Below are positions 8,248 through 49,141 of a stretch of DNA of 64,000 nucleotides, piece after piece. Positions within the stretch are counted from its first letter, which is position 1. Each line of letters starts with the position of its first letter. Position numbers and translations under genes: made by a program. The DNA is from Pseudomonadota bacterium (GTDB lineage Bacteria > UBA10199 > 2-02-FULL-44-16 > JAAZCA01): NCBI GenBank assembly GCA_043798915.1, contig JAZDOG010000102.1, positions 23,226 to 87,225 of the forward strand. The letters run 5' to 3'. The notes beneath the pieces were generated by a model. It saw only the letters and a list, made by a program, of their open reading frames with translations, ran no database searches and had not been told where the DNA came from.

Positions 8248-9773
<1,526 letters not shown>

Positions 9774-9777
<4 letters not shown>

Positions 9778-10313
9778 GTCAAACTCTCCTTCATTCGTTC
9801 CAATTTGCCCCTGATGCTCGCATCGTAGCGCATGTCCCCGAGCCAGACTTCGATGCCGCCGAGGAGCGATGCATCCACGCTGACATCGCATCTGCTCGCA
9901 AGCTTCAGGACATCGCTCAATATCTCCTCGATCCGCCCTTTCACCTCGGCCGCGAGACCGCCGTCGGCCACGTGTGCGCGCGCCACCGCGAGGCGCTCGT
10001 GGCGCTCAACCCTTGCGGCAAAATCCTCCGAGACGAGTTCGAGAATATTGAGGCGGCCCCTTTCAATCAGGAGTTTCAAGAGATTTTTCGCCATTTTCCC
10101 GACCCCGAGCGCGTCTGCTGCGTCGCCTGCAGCAGCAAGCCGCCTCTTGAGATCGACGCGCTCGTCCGAAAGACCCTTGATGAAATGCGGCACGTCGTTC
10201 GCACATTCGCCGATGCGCTGCACGTCTGCGAGCAGACGCTTCGCGTCTCCGGACTCCAATGCGAGGTCGAAGATCGCCTTGCCATAGCGCTTTGCGATTG
10301 CGCTCTCCCTCAT
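9774..10313 (-). CDS. atpH: ATP synthase delta subunit
   Basis: [22 protein letters not shown]; operon position. Confidence 0.95.
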
Positions 10314-10831
10314 CAGCGTCCCCCCGATTGCAGGCCGGCGAGCGAGCCCGGAAGGATTGTCGAAAATTCACCGAGCCCTTTGCGGACCGCCGCCTTCTTC
10401 ATCTCTGCCGACATCTCCTCTTTGAGGATTGATTCGGCCCGAACGAACGCCCCTTCCACTATCCTCCGCTTGAAATCCGCGATGGCAGCGATGATCTCCC
10501 CTTCCCCCTGCCTCTCTGCGTTCTCCCTGATGCGTTCCGCCCGCCTCTGCGCCTCTTCCAGCGCCGCCTTGCTTTCCTCCTCTGCGAAACGCGCGATCAA
10601 CTGCTTTCGCGCCGCGAGGTCGTCCGGGAGGCGGGAAGCGAGGCGCGAACTCTCTGCCGCGCGAGCCTTCGCCGCCTTGATCAGCTCCGCTGCGTCGCCG
10701 ATCTCCTTTTTGATTTTAGCGCGGCGCGCATAGAAGAAATGGCGCCCCACGCGATGCCAGCTGCGCAGTATCAGGCCGATGAGAAGCCCCAGATTGCCGA
10801 GGCCGAACAGGAATATTTTGAATTCGCTCAT
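10313..10831 (-). CDS. atpF: ATP synthase F0 subunit b
   Basis: N-terminal TM helix plus charged coiled coil; operon position. Confidence 0.8.
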   Translation of the reverse strand: MSEFKIFLFGLGNLGLLIGLILRSWHRVGRHFFYARRAKIKKEIGDAAELIKAAKARAAESSRLASRLPDDLAARKQLIARFAEEESKAALEEAQRRAERIRENAERQGEGEIIAAIADFKRRIVEGAFVRAESILKEEMSAEMKKAAVRKGLGEFSTILPGSLAGLQSGGR

Positions 10832-10841
10832 CGGGCCGCCT

Positions 10842-11288
10842 TTATGATTCGGACGTAATGCGGGAGACTATCTCCCTTGCCAGTTCGCTCGACCGCTTCC
10901 CCACCTCTGCGGCGATCGATTCCTCCGACGGCTTCCCTGCGCGGGACATGCCTGCGATGTTCTTGGCCTCGGCGCGCGCCTCGGCGACGATCTTCCCCGC
11001 GGCAATCCTCGCCTCGGCAAGTTTCGTCGTCCGCTCTGCGTTGGCATCCGCGAGCGCCTTCGACACCGCAGCCACCCTTTCCGCTTCGAGGGCAGCGGAC
11101 TCTGCGGCCAACAGCGAAGCATCCTCGCGCGCCCCGCTGGTGAGCTTTTTCCTTTGATCGATTATGCGGAGCACGGGCCTCAAGACAAAAAAGTGGATCG
11201 CAGCGGCCGCCGAAAAAAAAACGCACAGCTGGACGGCGACAGTCCAGTCCGGCATGAGGTGTATCTCTGCACCCAAAACGGCGAGCAT
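10842..11288 (-). CDS. ATP synthase F0 subunit b'
   Basis: PDWTVAVQLCVFF..LRPVLRIIDQR TM plus coiled coil; operon position. Confidence 0.85.
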   Translation of the reverse strand: MLAVLGAEIHLMPDWTVAVQLCVFFSAAAAIHFFVLRPVLRIIDQRKKLTSGAREDASLLAAESAALEAERVAAVSKALADANAERTTKLAEARIAAGKIVAEARAEAKNIAGMSRAGKPSEESIAAEVGKRSSELAREIVSRITSES

Positions 11289-14319: not shown

Positions 14320-15975
<1,656 letters not shown>

Positions 15976-41744: not shown

Positions 41745-42134
41745 ATGTCACTCAAAATAGTGAATACGGAGAAAGCACCGAAGGCGGTGGGGCCTTACAG
41801 CCAGGCGATCCGCGCCGGGGAGTTCCTCTTCTGCTCCGGCCAGATCCCGATCGATCCGGCCACCGGCAGGCTCGAGCTCTTCGACGGCAACGTCGCCGAG
41901 CAGACGAAGATCGTGATGACGAATCTCAAAGCGGTGCTCGCGGCAGAGGGTCTGTCGTTCAAGGACGTGGTGAAGACCACGATATATCTCTCGGACATGG
42001 AGAACTTCGCCCAGGTCAACGAGATGTACGCCTCGTTCCTCGGCGACCATAGGCCGGCGCGGGCGACCGTCGAGGTCGCCCGCCTCCCCAAGGATGTCGG
42101 CGTGGAGATCGACGCCATAGCCTGGGCAGGATAA
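41745..42134 (+). CDS. ridA: RidA-family enamine deaminase
   Basis: [39 protein letters not shown]. Confidence 0.95.
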   Translation: MSLKIVNTEKAPKAVGPYSQAIRAGEFLFCSGQIPIDPATGRLELFDGNVAEQTKIVMTNLKAVLAAEGLSFKDVVKTTIYLSDMENFAQVNEMYASFLGDHRPARATVEVARLPKDVGVEIDAIAWAG

Positions 42135-42235
42135 TGCCAATGGCATTGCAAAATAATGATAAAAATCAATATATTGAAAAGAAAAAACTCCAATAGTCAT
42201 CATATCTCTTGATAACTACATAAAATGTGTATACG

Positions 42236-42257
42236 CTTATTATGTATACATAATAAG
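42236..42257. promoter_or_regulatory. 22-bp perfect palindrome upstream of the AAA ATPase (putative operator)
   Basis: CTTATTATGTA|TACATAATAAG; GTATAC occurs three times (42229, 42244, 42257). Confidence 0.6.
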
Positions 42258-42273
42258 TATACGTGGAGTGCTT

Positions 42274-43404
42274 ATGAAAAATCCTTTTCGCTACGGCGTA
42301 CCCGTAAGTGGCGATTATTATTTTCCGCGCCCTGATTTTTCGAAAAAACTTTCTCCCTATACCCTGTCGGGTCAGAAAATCCTTCTATATGGCCGCAGGA
42401 GGTTTGGAAAAACTTCGTTTCTGAAGGAGTACTCCGACACCCTCAAAGAGAAAGGCAGCGCGTCCGTATTCGTCGACGTCTATCCCATCACATCGTTGCG
42501 CGATTTCCTGCATGCCCTGTCTGCCGGCATAAAGGAGAGCGGGCTTCTTTCGACGACGGATCGAATGAAAGGGATCGTATTCGATCTCTTCCGAACCCGG
42601 CCACGACTCGCTGTGGAGGGAGACTCCACTTCGCTCGATTTTTTCATTCCGTCGCTTAAAGACGACGATGTCAAATCCGCCATCGAAGATACGATCCGGC
42701 TCTTTGGAAAAATCGCCGAAGCGCAGCCGATCGTCGTCGTCTTCGATGAGTTCCAGAAGATTGCTGAAATAGATGACGCGGGATGGCTCGAGGGAACGCT
42801 CCGGAGCGAAATACAAAAACAGGAGGCCGTGCCTTACATATTCTGCGGCTCGCGGCGAGGCCTCATACTCGATATGTTTCAAAACTCTTCGAGACCGTTC
42901 TATCAGATGTGCACGGCCATAGAACTCCCCCGCCTGCAGGATGATTTTGCGAAGTGGCTGCGCACAAAACTGCTCGGCGCAAAAGTCGCCATCGATTCTG
43001 AAACATCACTTGCCTTGCTGGACAAAATCAATTGGAGTCCTAACTACGCTCAGATGATCGCATTTCACCTTGTAGCGGATCCTCCCGAAGGAAATGTCAG
43101 CGTCGATGATATTGAACGCGTCCTGGATGCGCTCTGCCAGCTGAACGGCTACACGTATATGACGCTCTACGATTCGCTCGGCGCAAATGCGCAGCGGCTC
43201 CTGCGCCTTGTCGCAAAAAATCCAGGCCAGAGCCCCTTCCGCCAGGAACTGATGGCAACATTCGATTTGAGAACGTCGGGCGTTCAGTCCGCCATTCGCA
43301 GCCTGATCAACAGACACATCCTGGATGACACGACGTCGGGCGGGAACGTTTATTTTGACGATCCGCTTTTTTCCAGATGGCTCAAGACCAGGTTGGGGTA
43401 CTGA
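42274..43404 (+). CDS. Standalone AAA/STAND-like ATPase (archaeal-ATPase type) with C-terminal wHTH
   Basis: [35 protein letters not shown]. Confidence 0.85.
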
Positions 43405-43421
43405 AGCGACCAAAGCGCACA

Positions 43422-43519
43422 TCCTGGGCGACCACAGGCCGGCGCGGGCGACCGTCGAGGTGGCCCGCCTCCCCAAGGATGTCGCAGTGGAGATCGATGC
43501 CATAGCCTGGGCTAAATGA
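43422..43519 (+). pseudogene. Duplicated 3' end of ridA (direct repeat of 42037-42127)
   Basis: 85/91 nt identity over 43422-43512; encodes [31 protein letters not shown]. Confidence 0.9.
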
Positions 43520-43535
43520 CGCCGAAATTTGCGCG

Positions 43536-45290
43536 TCATCTATTCCTGGTCGCCAAGGTCAGATACGCTCCTCCGTTCTCTATCAACAATCTTAGGTCGA
43601 TGAGATCCTGGAGCGCGCTGTCTCGGCAGGCGAGTTCGTTCCGTTTTTTCGGCGTCAGACATGCAACGAGAATGTCGCTGTGGGGGGGGGTCAATGTATA
43701 GTCAAACCACTTTCTACTGGTTGTTCTTCGATCTTTCACCCGACAATAATCCTTTCCACCAACATACAATTCAAGCGCGCCTCCATCTTCGCCATTCACA
43801 ATTGACGCTGGGAGAACGCACTTCGCAGTAGGGCGCGGAGCATAATCCCAATAAAGCGTCGGCTTGAATCTGTAGCGCTTCGGCAAAATCATTTTGTAAA
43901 AGTTCGCCGGAGACATCGCCACGATTCCACCCTCCGCAGGATAGCCGAAATATCTGCTTCCGTATTTCAGATTGAACGGCATCTGCGAGACAACTCCGTT
44001 GATGAGGTGGGAAATGGCGCTCAGCGTTGTCCGGTTTAGTGCATAATCGTCTCGGGCTCCTCCGGGGTAAGGAGATATAATCGTAAAATCTGCAGTTATG
44101 CCAAGACTCTTGGCAGTCTGCAGCATCACAATATTTTCCAGCGCCGTTACTCCCTTTTTCATCTTTTCAAGGAGTTCATCGCTGAACGATTCTATTCCGA
44201 CAAAACAGCGCCGCAGCCCGGCTTTCGAGAGAAGCTCGAAATGCCTGGCGGAAATGCTGGCCCTCAACGCCATGCCAAAATTATAATCATAAGGCGAATC
44301 GATAAGGGCTTTGGCGAGCGACTCCAATTTATTGGGCTGCACCGAGTCGGCAAAGTAAAAATTCAAGCACCTGTGCCGCTTTGCCAGATGTTCCATGCCC
44401 GCCACGACGCGATCATCCGACATCCGTTCATATGAGCGATGCCCATAACAAACATAATTGCAGAAAGTACATTTTCTCCACCAACAGCCCCTGCTCGCTT
44501 CAACTGGAATTTCGGAAGAAATTTCAACCTGTGATTTTATCCTTCGAAGCGACGGGGAATTAAAATAATCGTCATAGTCCGGGAAAGGAAGGCTCTCAAG
44601 GTCTATTGGTTTTCTCAAAGCTTTATTGATTGTAACCGCTTTTCCAACTCTGCGGCACGTCCCTGCCGGCGCTTCATGCGTTCCCCTCTCTACGATCCTC
44701 ACAATCTCCGACAGCACTCCCTCGCCCTCTCCATCTACAACCCAATCGATAAAAGAAAACGCTTTTGCCAATGCGCGTCCGACCTCGCCTATGCACTCTG
44801 ACCCCCCAAAAATGACTTGAACGCTTGGATAAAGCTTCTTGACGATATATCCGCAGAACAATGCCGGCATCAGATTGTAATTGGCGCTCACCCCAACAAC
44901 AGCATAAGGAAATCTTTTTTCCCAGCGCCTGGCGAGGTGATTGTTGAAACACAGGACGCTTCTCCGGAGTTTGATGAATAATTTTCGCTGATTTTTTTTA
45001 GGATCGCGATAGACAGACCTCATCGTCTGCAGGTAACGTCTCTCTGATAAATGTTTGGGGAATACCGCTGACGAATAGAGTATATCGGGCAGCTTGCCCA
45101 GCGCCTTCCTTCCCATCCACTCCCGCAGCTCATTGTCAAGATACGCATGAAGATCGAGGTTCGTGTAATGACAATCGCATGACATCCCCTCTGCGCTCAG
45201 AGAGGCCTTCAAACGTCCGAGCGCACAGGATGGCTGATGTATTGGAGCTAGCGGTGGCTGGATAAGGAGAATTCGTCGTTCGTCTGTCAT
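43536..45290 (-). CDS. B12-binding radical SAM enzyme resembling the RiPP maturation radical SAM protein 1 (TIGR03975-like) family
   Basis: ILLIQPP..PSCALGRLKA..YTNL, IFGG..GEGE, LPFPDYDDYF, EASRGCWWRKCTFC, GIESFS..L..MKKG, C-terminal wHTH-like YLTLA. Confidence 0.8.
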   Translation of the reverse strand: MTDERRILLIQPPLAPIHQPSCALGRLKASLSAEGMSCDCHYTNLDLHAYLDNELREWMGRKALGKLPDILYSSAVFPKHLSERRYLQTMRSVYRDPKKNQRKLFIKLRRSVLCFNNHLARRWEKRFPYAVVGVSANYNLMPALFCGYIVKKLYPSVQVIFGGSECIGEVGRALAKAFSFIDWVVDGEGEGVLSEIVRIVERGTHEAPAGTCRRVGKAVTINKALRKPIDLESLPFPDYDDYFNSPSLRRIKSQVEISSEIPVEASRGCWWRKCTFCNYVCYGHRSYERMSDDRVVAGMEHLAKRHRCLNFYFADSVQPNKLESLAKALIDSPYDYNFGMALRASISARHFELLSKAGLRRCFVGIESFSDELLEKMKKGVTALENIVMLQTAKSLGITADFTIISPYPGGARDDYALNRTTLSAISHLINGVVSQMPFNLKYGSRYFGYPAEGGIVAMSPANFYKMILPKRYRFKPTLYWDYAPRPTAKCVLPASIVNGEDGGALELYVGGKDYCRVKDRRTTSRKWFDYTLTPPHSDILVACLTPKKRNELACRDSALQDLIDLRLLIENGGAYLTLATRNR

Positions 45291-45457
45291 AATGAACAAC
45301 GAGTGTCGTTGCCGGTCTCGTTCCTCGACGAACCCGCCGCATCAGATGAAGGCAACGCGCGCTCGCAGATCAGCAGTTAATAAACCAAGCCACACAGCGC
45401 CTGGCCTTATCGCACCAACACTTTTAAAACAAAATTCCACGATCCTACCAAGAATCG

Positions 45458-45616
45458 CTACTTTTTGGTGCTTTTCGGAACTCCCACATCATATCCCTTA
45501 TCATATCCTTTCCCCCATGGGGCGTTCTTTGAAGCAGCATTTGGATTCCCTGCCGTTTTCCCCGGCCTGGGCGGAACCACCACAACCTTCGGCTGCACCG
45601 TCTTAGTGACCGCCAT
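45458..45616 (-). CDS. 52-aa small protein, putative RiPP precursor: MAVTKTVQPKVVVVPPRPGKTAGNPNAASKNAPWGKGYDKGYDVGVPKSTKK
   Basis: Hand-translated ORF below the ORF-track cutoff; AGGAGGT RBS at 45627-45621; co-directional upstream of the rSAM gene. Confidence 0.7.
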   Translation of the reverse strand: MAVTKTVQPKVVVVPPRPGKTAGNPNAASKNAPWGKGYDKGYDVGVPKSTKK

Positions 45617-45656
45617 ATACACCTCCTCTTGTTTTTATTCCCAGATAACCATTTAT

Positions 45657-45685
45657 ATTTTACTATTGTTATTGGTTGAAATCAA
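45657..45685 (-). promoter_or_regulatory. Sigma70-like promoter for the peptide/rSAM unit
   Basis: - strand TTGATT-N17-TAAAAT. Confidence 0.55.
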
Positions 45686-45781
45686 TTAAATCAAAAACGT
45701 CGCGTTCGATACTATAATATATATAAACCCAAGACGTCGTTATTGCCTGTGTCTGGCGATTCGTGCTAATGGATACCGGTC

Positions 45782-47167
45782 ATGATACGCCGATGCTTTC
45801 TTGCCTTGCTCCTGTTCATGCTGCCATCCGCCTCGCTTGCGGATCCCCAGCATGTCACCATCCTGCACTTCAACGATATCCACGGCCACCTCGAACCCGT
45901 CGAGGCGAAGGGCGGCGAGAGATGCGGCGCCGCGCGCATAGCGACGATCGTCCATCGAATCGAAGATGAGAACGGCGCGAAGGGCGCCGAGACGATCCTC
46001 CTCTTCGGCGGGGATGCGCTCACTGGCACGCTCATCTCGCTCGAGTTCAAGGGCGATGCGGAGTTTGATTTCTTCAATGACATCGGCGTAGACGCAATGA
46101 CGATAGGCAACCACGACTTCGACGAGGGCCTGCCTCGCCTTGAGGCACTCATCCAGAAAGCGCAATTCCCGGTCCTCTCCGCCAACATCCGCTGGAAGAA
46201 GAGCGGCGAGCTTCTCACCAGACCCTGGACGGTGATCAGCGGCCGCGGCCCGGAGGTGGCGGTCGTGGGGCTCGCTACGATAGAAACGCGCACGACTACA
46301 GCTCCTCAAAACATAGCGGAGCTCGACGTAACCGGCCCGGCCAAAGAGGCGCAAGGGGAGATGAAGAAGCTCCCCAAAAACGTACCGCTGCGCATTGCGC
46401 TGGCGCACATGGGACAGAAGGAGGGCGCAGATGTCGCGCAGAAGGTTCGGGGGCTCTCCGCCGTGATCGGCGGCCACGATCACAGCGCCCGGCCGGAGGA
46501 GAACTGCCGGATGGTGAAAAAAGTCCCGGTCTGCCTCACGCCGCCCAACGGCTGTTACGTCGGGAGGTTGGATTTCGAAGTCGACGGAAATAAAGTCAGG
46601 TTTGAGGGCTCCAGGCTTTTGTCTGCGGGCGCATCCGTGCCCAAAGACAAGGCCGTCGCAAAACTGGTCGACGGTTACTCAAGAAGGTTGAGCGGCAAAT
46701 ACGACCGTGTGATTGGAAAGGCGACAAAGAATCTGAAGGTGTCGAAGGCCGAACAGACGCCGCTCGGCAGGCTCATCTGCGACGCCATCCGCTGGAAGAC
46801 GGGAGTGGAGATCGGCTTTATCAACAGCAGCGGCGTCCGAGCGCCATTGAAACGAGGGATAATCAAAGTGCGCGACGTCGTCGAGATGCTGCCTTTCAAA
46901 AACACCATCACGATCCTCCGGATGAAGGGGAGCGAGATCGCGGACGTCGGGGCGCAGGGAAGCAAGCGGGGCGCCGGTTTCATACAGATATCGGGCGCAG
47001 ACGATCTGGAGAAGGACAGGACATACAGTGTCGGCACGGTGGATTTTCTGGCCGACGGCGGCGACGGATTCGAGATGCTCAAGGGCATCGAGGATCGAAA
47101 ATCCTCGGACATCCTCCTCCGCGATGTTGTCATGGATTATATTAAGAAGCGAAGAACCATTCCTTAA
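45782..47167 (+). CDS. Secreted 5'-nucleotidase/metallophosphoesterase
   Basis: Signal peptide, HFNDIHG, GGD, GNHDFD, GGHDH, GVRA..LPF.N, GGDGF. Confidence 0.9.
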   Translation: MIRRCFLALLLFMLPSASLADPQHVTILHFNDIHGHLEPVEAKGGERCGAARIATIVHRIEDENGAKGAETILLFGGDALTGTLISLEFKGDAEFDFFNDIGVDAMTIGNHDFDEGLPRLEALIQKAQFPVLSANIRWKKSGELLTRPWTVISGRGPEVAVVGLATIETRTTTAPQNIAELDVTGPAKEAQGEMKKLPKNVPLRIALAHMGQKEGADVAQKVRGLSAVIGGHDHSARPEENCRMVKKVPVCLTPPNGCYVGRLDFEVDGNKVRFEGSRLLSAGASVPKDKAVAKLVDGYSRRLSGKYDRVIGKATKNLKVSKAEQTPLGRLICDAIRWKTGVEIGFINSSGVRAPLKRGIIKVRDVVEMLPFKNTITILRMKGSEIADVGAQGSKRGAGFIQISGADDLEKDRTYSVGTVDFLADGGDGFEMLKGIEDRKSSDILLRDVVMDYIKKRRTIP

Positions 47168-48027
47168 CCGAACATCCCCTTCATCCGCAGGCGATCCCTC
47201 TCCGATATTTCGCGCGCGGGGCACTCCGACATCCAGCCCTTGAGCATCGCCGCCAGGAAGGCCCTTCTGGCGCCTGGGGCGCGCAGGGCCATGTCGATCA
47301 GCGCCGGGTATATCTCTCCTGTGCGCTCCTCCGGCGTGGAGCGCGACATGAGCTGAATGAACAGATCCCCCACGAGCCGATTGCTGCCCGCGCTGTCGCC
47401 GGAGACGACGCCGGCGAGGGTCACGAGCCTCACGCGGTTGTCCGCAATCGAAAAGATATGTTTGATGAGCTGCCTTCCCTCCGCCGGACGCAGGCGCGCG
47501 ACGCGGAGGGATGCGCTGGCAAGCTCGGGCGACGCCTTGATCCTGTGCTCATCCAGACCATCCGCCAGCTCGAAGGCCGCAGCGCTGTCCCCGCATGCGA
47601 TCCTGAGGAGCAGCCCCCACTCGGGCGCGCTTCGATCGCTTTTCTCCGATATCATCCCGATAGCCATCTTGGGATTGTGCGATGCCAGAGAGGCCGCGTC
47701 TGAGAGCTTCTCGGCGAAGAACCTGCGCGCCACCTGCGGCGCGATGGGATAGCAGATGGGGTCGATGACTGCAGCGAAGCTCGTCCTGAAGCCGCCGAAC
47801 CTCAAGGCGATGCGGCCCCATAGGCCAGAATCCATCTTCGCAATCGGAGACGGGGCCTCGTCCGAGGAGTAGGATGATTGGACGGAGGCCGGAGACGGCA
47901 GGGGCGTGGCAGCAGGGCTGATGAATACGGAGGAAACCCTGTCAAAAGCGATGTCGGCCGGGATCTTCATCGAAGGGAGAGCATATGGTGGCAGTTTGCG
48001 AGCAGGCAAGCTTTTTTTAGAACTCAT
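47164..48027 (-). CDS. Hypothetical protein downstream of recF (low-complexity N-terminus, helical C-terminus)
   Basis: ATG 1 nt after the recF stop; fills the gap to the convergent gene. Confidence 0.55.
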   Translation of the reverse strand: MSSKKSLPARKLPPYALPSMKIPADIAFDRVSSVFISPAATPLPSPASVQSSYSSDEAPSPIAKMDSGLWGRIALRFGGFRTSFAAVIDPICYPIAPQVARRFFAEKLSDAASLASHNPKMAIGMISEKSDRSAPEWGLLLRIACGDSAAAFELADGLDEHRIKASPELASASLRVARLRPAEGRQLIKHIFSIADNRVRLVTLAGVVSGDSAGSNRLVGDLFIQLMSRSTPEERTGEIYPALIDMALRAPGARRAFLAAMLKGWMSECPAREISERDRLRMKGMFG

Positions 48028-48028
48028 T

Positions 48029-49141
48029 TCAAAGCGCCATGGCGTGGCCCGAGGCCACCTCGAAGCGCTTGGCCCCGGAAAGGTGGGTGGCCCAAAGGCT
48101 CCCGGCATCGGTGGCCGTCACGAATACCTGCCCGGCGACATTGCCCAGATAATCGAAGAGAAAACGGCTGCGCTCCGAATCGAGTTCGCTGGCCACATCG
48201 TCCAGAAGGAGGATCGGCTCATCCCCCAGGGCCTCCCTCAACAGCTCCATCTCGGCGATCTTGAGGGCCAGGACGAACGACCTGTGCTGCCCCTGCGAGC
48301 CGAAGTGCCGGACGGCGGCGTCGCCGATCCTCGCCTCCAGGTCATCCCTGTGAGGACCCACGAGCGTGGTCCCGCGGTCGATTTCGTCGGGCCGCCTCTC
48401 TGCGAGCGCGAGTTCAAGCGCCTTCCTGACGGCTGCCTCTCCATCCTTCACCGCCTCCTCGCCACAGTGCGGACGATAGAGAAAAAGCGCCGAGGCGTCC
48501 TGCGGGGCGATTGCGGCGTATTTGTGGGGGATGATCCCGTTGAGCCTCTCGCACCAATGGCTTCGCTCTACCGATATCCTCGTGCCGAGCTCGATGAGCT
48601 GCCCGTCCCAGGCGGCGAGTTCCCTCTCAAGTGAGGGCGGGGGGAGCCCCTCCTGCAGAAGACGGTTCCTGTGGCTTACCACGCGCTCGTAGCGGCCCAC
48701 TACGCCGCGGTAGGATGGTGAGAGCTGTGCGATGAGTCCGTCGATGTGCCTGCGCCTCGCCGAGGGCGAGTCGCGAAGGAGGATTATCTCCTCCGGCGCG
48801 AAGATGACCGTCCCGAGGCCCACGAACCCCCCGGGCCTCGACCTCTTGGAGTTCCTGTAGAATATCTTGGCGGCCGGGTCCATGTTGACCCTGAGTTCGT
48901 CCGAGCCGGCGCTGCCAGATGAAGAAGCCGTAACCCTGGCGGCCTCGCAGTCGCTCCTGATCATATCCCTGAATTCAGAGGTGCGAAAGGACCGTCCGGT
49001 CGCCAGGAGCCCGACCGCCTCCACGATGTTGGTCTTCCCCTGCGCATTCATGCCTATGAGGAGATTGAAATGCGGATCGAGCTCGACGTGTTCATCGGCG
49101 AAATTACGGAAGTTTTTGAGATGGAGGGACTCTAAATACAT
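48029..49141 (-). CDS. recF: DNA replication/repair protein RecF
   Basis: NFRNF, GMNAQGKTN, GPHRDDL, SQGQHRS, LLDDVASELD. Confidence 0.98.
   Translation of the reverse strand: MYLESLHLKNFRNFADEHVELDPHFNLLIGMNAQGKTNIVEAVGLLATGRSFRTSEFRDMIRSDCEAARVTASSSGSAGSDELRVNMDPAAKIFYRNSKRSRPGGFVGLGTVIFAPEEIILLRDSPSARRRHIDGLIAQLSPSYRGVVGRYERVVSHRNRLLQEGLPPPSLERELAAWDGQLIELGTRISVERSHWCERLNGIIPHKYAAIAPQDASALFLYRPHCGEEAVKDGEAAVRKALELALAERRPDEIDRGTTLVGPHRDDLEARIGDAAVRHFGSQGQHRSFVLALKIAEMELLREALGDEPILLLDDVASELDSERSRFLFDYLGNVAGQVFVTATDAGSLWATHLSGAKRFEVASGHAMAL

Follow-up and report, generated by a model that had tools for sequence, protein, structure and literature searches.

A lysine-rich small gene beside a B12-binding radical SAM enzyme on acquired DNA: a candidate two-gene RiPP-type module

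Does a short lysine-rich open reading frame (ORF) that lies directly upstream of a gene for a B12-binding radical S-adenosylmethionine (rSAM) enzyme encode the substrate of that enzyme? The question is posed by a locus in a 64,000-nucleotide stretch of a Pseudomonadota genome assembly (GCA_043798915.1, contig JAZDOG010000102.1, positions 23,226 to 87,225; hereafter the window), where a sequence-only reading had proposed a minimal pathway for a peptide that is ribosomally synthesised and then modified post-translationally (RiPP). B12-dependent rSAM enzymes modify unactivated carbons, and few of them have a known peptide substrate; the available text of three sources presents those of polytheonamides, bottromycins, pheganomycin, clavusporins and biphenomycins as characterised (PMC11285071, PMC12257519, 10.1101/2024.01.23.576971). 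Here, we show that the gene anatomy of the locus, the family membership and fold of its enzyme, and its foreign origin are directly established. Our answer to the question itself is evenly balanced: that the locus is a horizontally acquired two-gene RiPP-type module, in which the 52-amino-acid (aa) peptide serves as the substrate of the rSAM, may be right or wrong with about the same probability.

The anatomy proposed earlier was confirmed from the sequence, namely the 52-aa frame on the minus strand with its AGGAGGT ribosome-binding site (RBS) and, after a gap of 167 nt between its stop codon and the ATG at 45290, the 584-aa rSAM carrying CWWRKCTFC (Table 1). The peptide holds 9 Lys, 1 Arg and 2 Asp; its residues 34-45 read WGKGYDKGYDVG and include a tandem KGYD repeat, whose two 12-nt units share 11 of 12 bases and are so nearly identical that the repeat may be recent. 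Only 6% of the ATGs in shuffled islet sequence open at least 52 codons, which places the small ORF above chance, and of the 450 AGGAGG sites in the source genome that are followed by a start codon after 4-9 nt, 293 open ORFs of at least 50 codons. Judged from these features, the small ORF is probably translated. The earlier description of it as hidden needs qualification: the frame is real, but the public protein collection already lists it as predicted protein P0121, so that not all gene callers missed it. A riboswitch or other RNA element in 45200-45800 was ruled out, since a scan with Rfam recovered no family there (the sole row was a long non-coding RNA at E 3.6, chance level) and the 186-nt spacer between peptide and rSAM folded no better than shuffled sequence (z -0.28).

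As had been claimed, the enzyme is of the TIGR03975 type. It scored 293 bits against the NCBIfam model, for which the cut-off is 281.85, with residues 7-580 aligned on model positions 1-605/606, a match that takes in the N-terminal B12-type Rossmann part, the rSAM barrel and the C-terminal domain. Pfam recovered Radical_SAM only (E 1e-9); PF02310 was unmatched in the window rSAM and is precomputed for the subfamily members P0007 and P0009. The three cysteines of the cluster motif are invariant across 65 aligned family members, and Cx4Cx2C is therefore the family's own spacing; the frame is intact and all family-invariant residues are kept. An AlphaFold2 model built from the 65-row alignment reached a predicted local distance difference test (pLDDT) score of 92.7, and a Foldseek search of the PDB with this model placed OxsB and TsrM first (E 1.7e-17), followed by CysS, MgmA and TokK, with alignments of 506-573 columns to OxsB, TsrM, CysS and TokK (E 1e-13 to 1e-17). 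The modelled fold thus bears out the B12-dependent rSAM architecture put forward earlier: it is a class B fold with a predicted cobalamin-binding Rossmann domain. C-methyltransferase activity on a peptide is what family membership predicts.

The sequence-only reading had also placed a winged-helix-like domain at the C-terminus and noted that RiPP recognition elements (RREs) of this fold bind leaders. Folded alone, this domain reached a pLDDT of 80.5, and a structural aligner independent of Foldseek ranked TbiB1 with its bound leader peptide as the top match (5v1u_A, Z 6.2, root-mean-square deviation 2.2 A, 64 residues), with two further RRE-bearing proteins, 6jx3_B and TigE 8vpo_A (both Z 5.3), also matching. 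Known RREs (PqqD-like domains, TbiB1, the B1 proteins of lasso peptides and the N-terminal domain of TigE) consist of three strands and then helices, as does the window domain; the latter differs in being joined to the enzyme's C-terminus. The RRE matches take in all of the leading three strands (model residues 24-92); rows for generic winged helices mostly begin at residues 31-52. However, generic DNA-binding winged helices scored Z 5.2-5.8 and are statistically tied with the RRE matches, and neither Foldseek at E <= 0.001 nor Pfam returned anything for the domain. Hence the winged helix stands as a model, and the domain is plausibly, on this modelled structure, a putative RRE.

The peptide and rSAM unit is compositionally foreign, which agrees with the earlier remark that it is richer in AT than its surroundings. 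The GC content is 0.46-0.53 over 42.1-45.8 kb and 0.58-0.65 in the flanks; at third codon positions (GC3) it is 0.54 in the rSAM, 0.57 in the peptide and 0.61 in a neighbouring ATPase gene, compared with 0.76-0.85 in PepT, RidA, 5'-nucleotidase and RecF. In G008, G003 and G010, three genomes of the same family, the genes for PepT, RidA and 5'-nucleotidase lie side by side (gaps of ~44-136 nt), and the 3.6-kb islet that separates the last two in the window is for this reason read as an insert.

Close relatives of the enzyme are few. Among 5.8 billion protein clusters we found eight, at 42-54% identity, four of which sit on one 56-kb contig, and the next best matches reached at most 32%. In a midpoint-rooted FastTree phylogeny of 170 sequences, built without ORFs that fell below 450 aa on trimming, the window rSAM, the eight relatives and P0010 form a separate clade. 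Scans of DNA gave a best locus of 33% identity in metagenomes, among the matches listed, and at most 32% in the genome collection, 26% in viral contigs and 28% in plasmids, while the rSAM had no match at E <= 1e-60 in any of 92 further genomes from the phylum.

NHLP or Nif11-type leader precursors are the original partners of the TIGR03975 family. Small basic ORFs were found beside other family members, and they lend the proposed pairing indirect support. We inspected five loci (L003, L004, L005, L187 and L188) from four genomes of the family and order to which the source genome belongs (G005, G012, G016 and G018). They contain eight TIGR03975-like rSAM genes with 27-32% identity to the window rSAM, and seven of these (the exception is L187 12857) have a basic ORF of 46-57 aa directly upstream on the same strand; five of the seven ORFs carry an AGGAGG-type site, and two run into the start of the rSAM gene. 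In the peptides of G016 and G018, 18 of 32 N-terminal residues are common to both and the sequences diverge beyond, a pattern that a conserved recognition part followed by a variable part would produce. Over all fetched loci, we counted RBS-preceded basic ORFs of 35-80 aa upstream of rSAM homologues and of comparison ORFs of at least 300 aa. With strict thresholds (K+R >= 0.22, gap <= 150 nt), such an ORF precedes 12 of 142 rSAM homologues and 11 of 846 other ORFs (Fisher P = 1.6e-5); with looser ones (K+R >= 0.18, gap <= 200 nt), the counts are 16 of 142 and 28 of 846 (Fisher P = 1.7e-4), both P values being overstatements because related sequences are not independent. The window peptide resembles the peptides of its relatives in position and composition only: a common N-terminal motif (MA.K.V..KP) was rejected by a shuffle test. 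In the peptide alignment (A3), the row L188:4057-4194 begins 3 nt past the true ATG.

None of the ten basic peptides matched NCBIfam at E <= 10. When 150 of 346 candidate small ORFs near the homologues were scanned against NCBIfam, we recovered one NHLP-type match and one thiopeptide-enzyme fragment; as only one of 150 matched an NHLP-type model, unrecognised precursors seem to be common in this part of the family. Two same-family upstream peptides contain tandem repeats, ITRFPGR x2 (L188 8769-8942) and KIKEIGG x2 (L187 5388-5543), which echo the KGYD x2 of the window. We also noticed that a distant metagenomic clade of TIGR03975-like enzymes has upstream peptides of 51-75 aa, which open with MAKK and have a KKL(S/T)(V/I)KK motif in common (Table 1). 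In L043, L051 and L055 a GG follows further along, L055 has a tandem AIKFGS repeat, and the three of these peptides that were scanned (L017, L019 and L043) gave no NCBIfam match.

Given these observations, we considered how the window pair compares with described systems. The available text on the clavusporin system of Streptomyces clavuligerus lists a 39-mer precursor (MpcA), a B12-rSAM (MpcB), the DUF5825 protein MpcC, the S9 peptidase MpcP and the transporter MpcT; it reports that MpcB and MpcC carry out repeated beta-methylation of Val, Ile, Thr and Pro in MpcA and that MpcC is needed for MpcB activity (Zhang and Seyedsayamdost, bioRxiv 10.1101/2024.01.23.576971). MpcB (WP_003958123.1) is homologous to the window rSAM at the family level, with 28% identity over 481 aa (E 7e-49). 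Its gene lies on an S. clavuligerus plasmid next to a DUF5825 gene and is named 'RiPP maturation radical SAM C-methyltransferase' by the Prokaryotic Genome Annotation Pipeline, and MpcA is unannotated in the 148-nt gap directly upstream, just as the window peptide lies directly upstream of its rSAM. The position therefore fits, although the two peptides show no sequence likeness: MpcA, as far as the published text describes it, has a core near the N-terminus and then a charged (acidic) follower, whereas the window peptide has VVVVPP and a basic tail. The enzymes differ as well, for MpcB has Cx7Cx2C, which reads CWWGEKHHCTFC, where the window rSAM has Cx4Cx2C, and the alignment does not extend to their C-terminal domains. 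As the earlier reading had said, the window pair has neither a protease nor an exporter next to it, and counterparts of the upstream S9 peptidase and major facilitator superfamily transporter of clavusporin are thus lacking there; the clavusporin host is an actinomycete, and the window host is not.

The polytheonamide enzymes PoyB and PoyC are class B rSAMs that methylate Val and Ile beta-carbons in a ribosomal peptide, with Cx7Cx2C as the cluster motif of PoyC, in the available part of the review (PMC11285071). For biphenomycin, the available text describes PbsB/BpmD as a B12-rSAM that cross-links a short ribosomal peptide at two aromatic residues close together, and PbsB as needing both prior hydroxylation by a multinuclear non-haem iron oxidase (MNIO) and a separate RRE protein (PMC12257519). 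Features that define the clavusporin, proteusin and biphenomycin clusters are missing from the window locus. Proteusin precursors have long NHLP-type leaders, and their clusters include an epimerase and other genes; none of these features is present at the window locus. We found no lysine-rich precursor of the TIGR03975 family in the literature, subscription journals and bioRxiv supplements being beyond the search. The enzyme family itself is known, and the gene set, the precursor and the enzyme subfamily are undescribed in the searchable literature.

From gene order, family membership and fold, we infer a link between enzyme and peptide, the chemistry and its target residues as follows. The basic peptide would be strongly translated and serve as the substrate, and the downstream rSAM would be weakly translated; since the peptide has a strong Shine-Dalgarno sequence and the rSAM has none, the peptide may be made in excess. 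The hairpin past the peptide stop codon might let only part of the transcripts run on into the rSAM. The enzyme would hold the peptide through its fused RRE-like winged helix, after which a 5'-deoxyadenosyl radical would abstract a hydrogen and methylcobalamin would give a methyl group to an unactivated carbon, a class B mechanism that is described in the available part of a review (PMC11285071). Candidate targets are the beta-carbons of V11-V14 and P15-P16 or, alternatively, Lys, Tyr and Asp of the KGYD repeat. The sequence-only reading had assigned the Val/Pro run to the leader and the KGYD repeat to the core. VVVVPP appears an equally good target, because MpcBC and PoyC, in the available text of the reports on them, methylate the beta-carbons of Val, Ile, Thr and Pro; by analogy with leader-bound RREs, the same Val-rich strand could equally be what the RRE would pair with. 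A core in the Val/Pro run and a core in the KGYD repeat are therefore about equally probable assignments. The locus has neither a protease nor an exporter of its own, and the product may remain at full length or be processed by the host. Complex prediction for the rSAM (65-row alignment) with the peptide gave scores of 0.01 and 0.02, where the mark is 0.32, and speaks neither for nor against binding.

Several results weigh against taking the peptide as the substrate. It matched only itself in a word-based search of the 5.8 billion protein clusters and in a HMMER search of 1.84 billion representatives (E <= 0.001), it has no second copy in the source genome, and the ESM Atlas gave no usable match. 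The earlier statement that the motif belongs to no described precursor family holds for NCBIfam and Pfam as well as for these large protein searches. A search for GYD-type repeats by regular expression and six-frame translation recovered only the window's own copy in 171 fetched loci. Relatives of a 52-mer below ~45-50% identity would probably escape thresholds set by libraries of this size, and we consider that the lack of relatives weakens the case for a substrate and does not kill it. The peptide also falls outside the strict thresholds used for the upstream count (K+R 0.19, gap 167 nt), and ~90% of the rSAM homologues have no such basic ORF upstream. A profile built from the nine basic peptides of G005, G012, G016 and G018 scored the window peptide at 1.8, compared with 5.2 +/- 2.5 for shuffles, of which 1936 out of 2000 scored at least as high. 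The promoter TTGATT-N17-TAAAAT that had been claimed is present, but such sites occur at chance frequency (3 found versus 2.9 expected in shuffles), its position being the only point in its favour, and terminator-like hairpins are likewise at chance level (1 found versus 3.0 expected).

Further points on the same side concern the enzyme and its partners. The closest rSAM subfamily is tiny, with eight sequences. In the source genome, which is 97% complete, no protein exceeded the cut-off of TIGR03793 or TIGR03798 (NHLP and Nif11 leaders), DUF5825 (PF19142) was found neither in the genome nor adjacent to the pair at E <= 1, and MNIO (PF05114) had no match. Searches of the assembly for CobS and CobD/CbiB were negative as well, and the organism probably imports B12. 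One cobalamin riboswitch is present (G000:C92:6867-7061, locus L196, 71.9 bits) and, in favour of the module, points to cobalamin being in use. The source genome encodes several B12-type radical SAM enzymes.

These findings give substance to the view that the small ORF is no substrate at all but a chance ORF or an unrelated basic protein, which would leave the rSAM as an orphan on mobile DNA with an unlinked substrate or none. We regard this as rather unlikely, with a weight that is not negligible. The peptide's isolation in protein collections, the ESM Atlas and its own genome agrees with it, as do the lack of any order-specific likeness to the peptides of relatives, the promoter-like and terminator-like sites at chance level, the patchwork of the islet with its separately bracketed ATPase cassette, and the absence of a protease, exporter or partner protein. 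Yet the ORF combines a strong RBS, a length reached by 6% of chance ORFs and a foreign GC3 like that of the rSAM, and the peptide lies on the same strand and directly upstream, as in MpcA/MpcB and beside rSAMs of the same family and order. The intact rSAM frame, in which all family-invariant residues are kept, and the absence of an NHLP or Nif11 substrate over cut-off elsewhere in the 97% complete genome also argue for the neighbouring peptide. Should the ORF not be a substrate after all, the locus would be another orphan rSAM on mobile DNA.

Two other explanations retain a function for the peptide. In one, the module is the same but the rSAM cross-links aromatic or Lys side chains, forming a Tyr38-Tyr42 C-C bond or a Trp34/Lys link and hence a macrocycle lighter by 2 Da; we give it a slim chance. 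The stretch W-G-K-G-Y-D-K-G-Y in the peptide and the tandem repeats of three other upstream peptides (ITRFPGR x2 in L188, KIKEIGG x2 in L187 and AIKFGS x2 in L055) invite this idea, and PbsB, according to the available text, links two ortho-Tyr residues, or two Tyr where a YTY variant is used, through a C-C bond with no obvious role for its cobalamin (PMC12257519). It is countered by the spacing of the tyrosines, which is i, i+4 and not i, i+2, by the absence of the biphenomycin partners, with no MNIO in the genome or adjacent, and by the NCBIfam family name, which is C-methyltransferase, as well as the methylating activity of the alignable relative MpcB; moreover, the KGYD repeat, with its two almost identical 12-nt units, may be recent. 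Classical branched-chain amino-acid attenuators use Val runs, and in the other explanation the small ORF would be a regulatory leader peptide in which stalling at four Val codons, together with the hairpin, attenuates transcription of the rSAM. Four consecutive Val codons, a hairpin at the stop codon with T-rich sequence behind it and a 167-nt spacer before an rSAM that has no Shine-Dalgarno sequence of its own are all present. However, ~120 nt separate the Val run from the hairpin after it, more than classical coupling would allow, the spacer has a folding z of -0.28 and no Rfam element, and the downstream gene is not one of amino-acid biosynthesis, all of which makes this explanation very improbable.

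If the peptide is the substrate of the rSAM, as in the two-gene module that we favour, the unit would be unusually simple to reconstitute, because the enzyme has its own recognition domain, and an expression recipe is available from the clavusporin work, in so far as its accessible text gives it (10.1101/2024.01.23.576971). Should basic peptides be true substrates, the family would reach past hydrophobic, leader-dependent precursors, and a class of small genes overlooked by annotation would come into view. A broader conjecture, which we consider distinctly doubtful, is that several TIGR03975-type clades act on an unrecognised class of substrates: short peptides (~45-75 aa) that are rich in Lys/Arg, lack NHLP or Nif11 leaders and in many cases have a small tandem repeat in their C-terminal half. 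The window pair might then be its most reduced mobile form, an enzyme with a fused RRE and a peptide alone, with chemistry on a polar Lys/Gly/Tyr/Asp motif unlike the beta-methylation of hydrophobic residues. For RiPP mining, the locus is a reasonable lead and not a surprise.

Table 1. Positions of the features discussed (window coordinates; for the MAKK-type peptides, coordinates within the named locus).
Feature	Position	Strand	Remarks
Insert between ridA and the 5'-nucleotidase gene	42135-45781		ATPase cassette, ridA' fragment, rSAM and peptide; 3.6 kb
Second copy of the ridA 3' end	43422-43523	+	Orphan, in frame; between ATPase cassette and rSAM stop codon
B12-binding radical SAM enzyme, TIGR03975 family	43536-45290	-	584 aa; no Shine-Dalgarno sequence of its own
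C-terminal winged-helix (RRE-like) domain, predicted	43539-43781	-	Codons ~504-584; beta-beta-beta-alpha-alpha-beta-beta in the AlphaFold2 model
CWWRKCTFC, Cx4Cx2C cluster motif	44460-44486	-	Codons 269-277; Cys269, Cys274, Cys277
Terminator-like hairpin with T-rich tail	45439-45458	-	8 pairs, 3 of them G-C; begins at the small-ORF stop codon
52-aa Lys-rich ORF, candidate precursor peptide	45458-45616	-	Stop codon included; read from sequence
KGYDKGYD	45488-45511	-	Codons 36-43; tandem 12-nt duplication AAAGGATATGAT / AAGGGATATGAT
PKVVVVPPRPG, Val/Pro-rich stretch	45560-45592	-	Codons 9-19; possible RRE-paired leader strand or methylated core
Shine-Dalgarno AGGAGGT of the small ORF	45621-45627	-	5 nt ahead of the ATG
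Promoter-like TTGATT-N17-TAAAAT	45657-45685	-	Matches the consensus at 9 of 12 positions; lies in the AT-rich gap between the unit and the divergent 5'-nucleotidase gene
MAKK-type peptide, L017	1407-1580		
MAKK-type peptide, L019	7324-7533		
MAKK-type peptide, L033	7744-7941		
MAKK-type peptide, L043	5976-6143		
MAKK-type peptide, L051	332-487		
MAKK-type peptide, L055	4967-5194		

The genes around the pair encode NamZ, an M20 peptidase, RidA, the ATPase, 5'-nucleotidase, an unknown protein and RecF. The 3' end of ridA occurs as a direct repeat of 102 nt (42037-42138 and 43422-43523; 89% identical, both in frame), which brackets the ATPase_2/AAA-type gene (42268-43404, +) alone, and the ATPase gene resembles a cassette that was inserted at, or recombined through, the ridA end. 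Because the repeat brackets the ATPase only, the ATPase probably came in independently of the rSAM-peptide pair. In L187 (G005:C26:8000-25000), three TIGR03975-like rSAMs (1178-2383, 9584-10918 and 14706-15836) each have an AAA_14/DUF4143 ATPase on the 3' side; a transposase-like ORF is found nearby, as is an AbiEii-like nucleotidyltransferase. The window rSAM likewise has an ATPase on its 3' side, which could be a functional link or merely a shared variable region. Between the 5'-nucleotidase gene and recF, a 314-aa ORF on the minus strand (47164-48108) has no Pfam match; the ORF overlaps both neighbours, its 3' end reaching into the end of the 5'-nucleotidase gene and its 5' end into the 3' end of recF (48029-48108).

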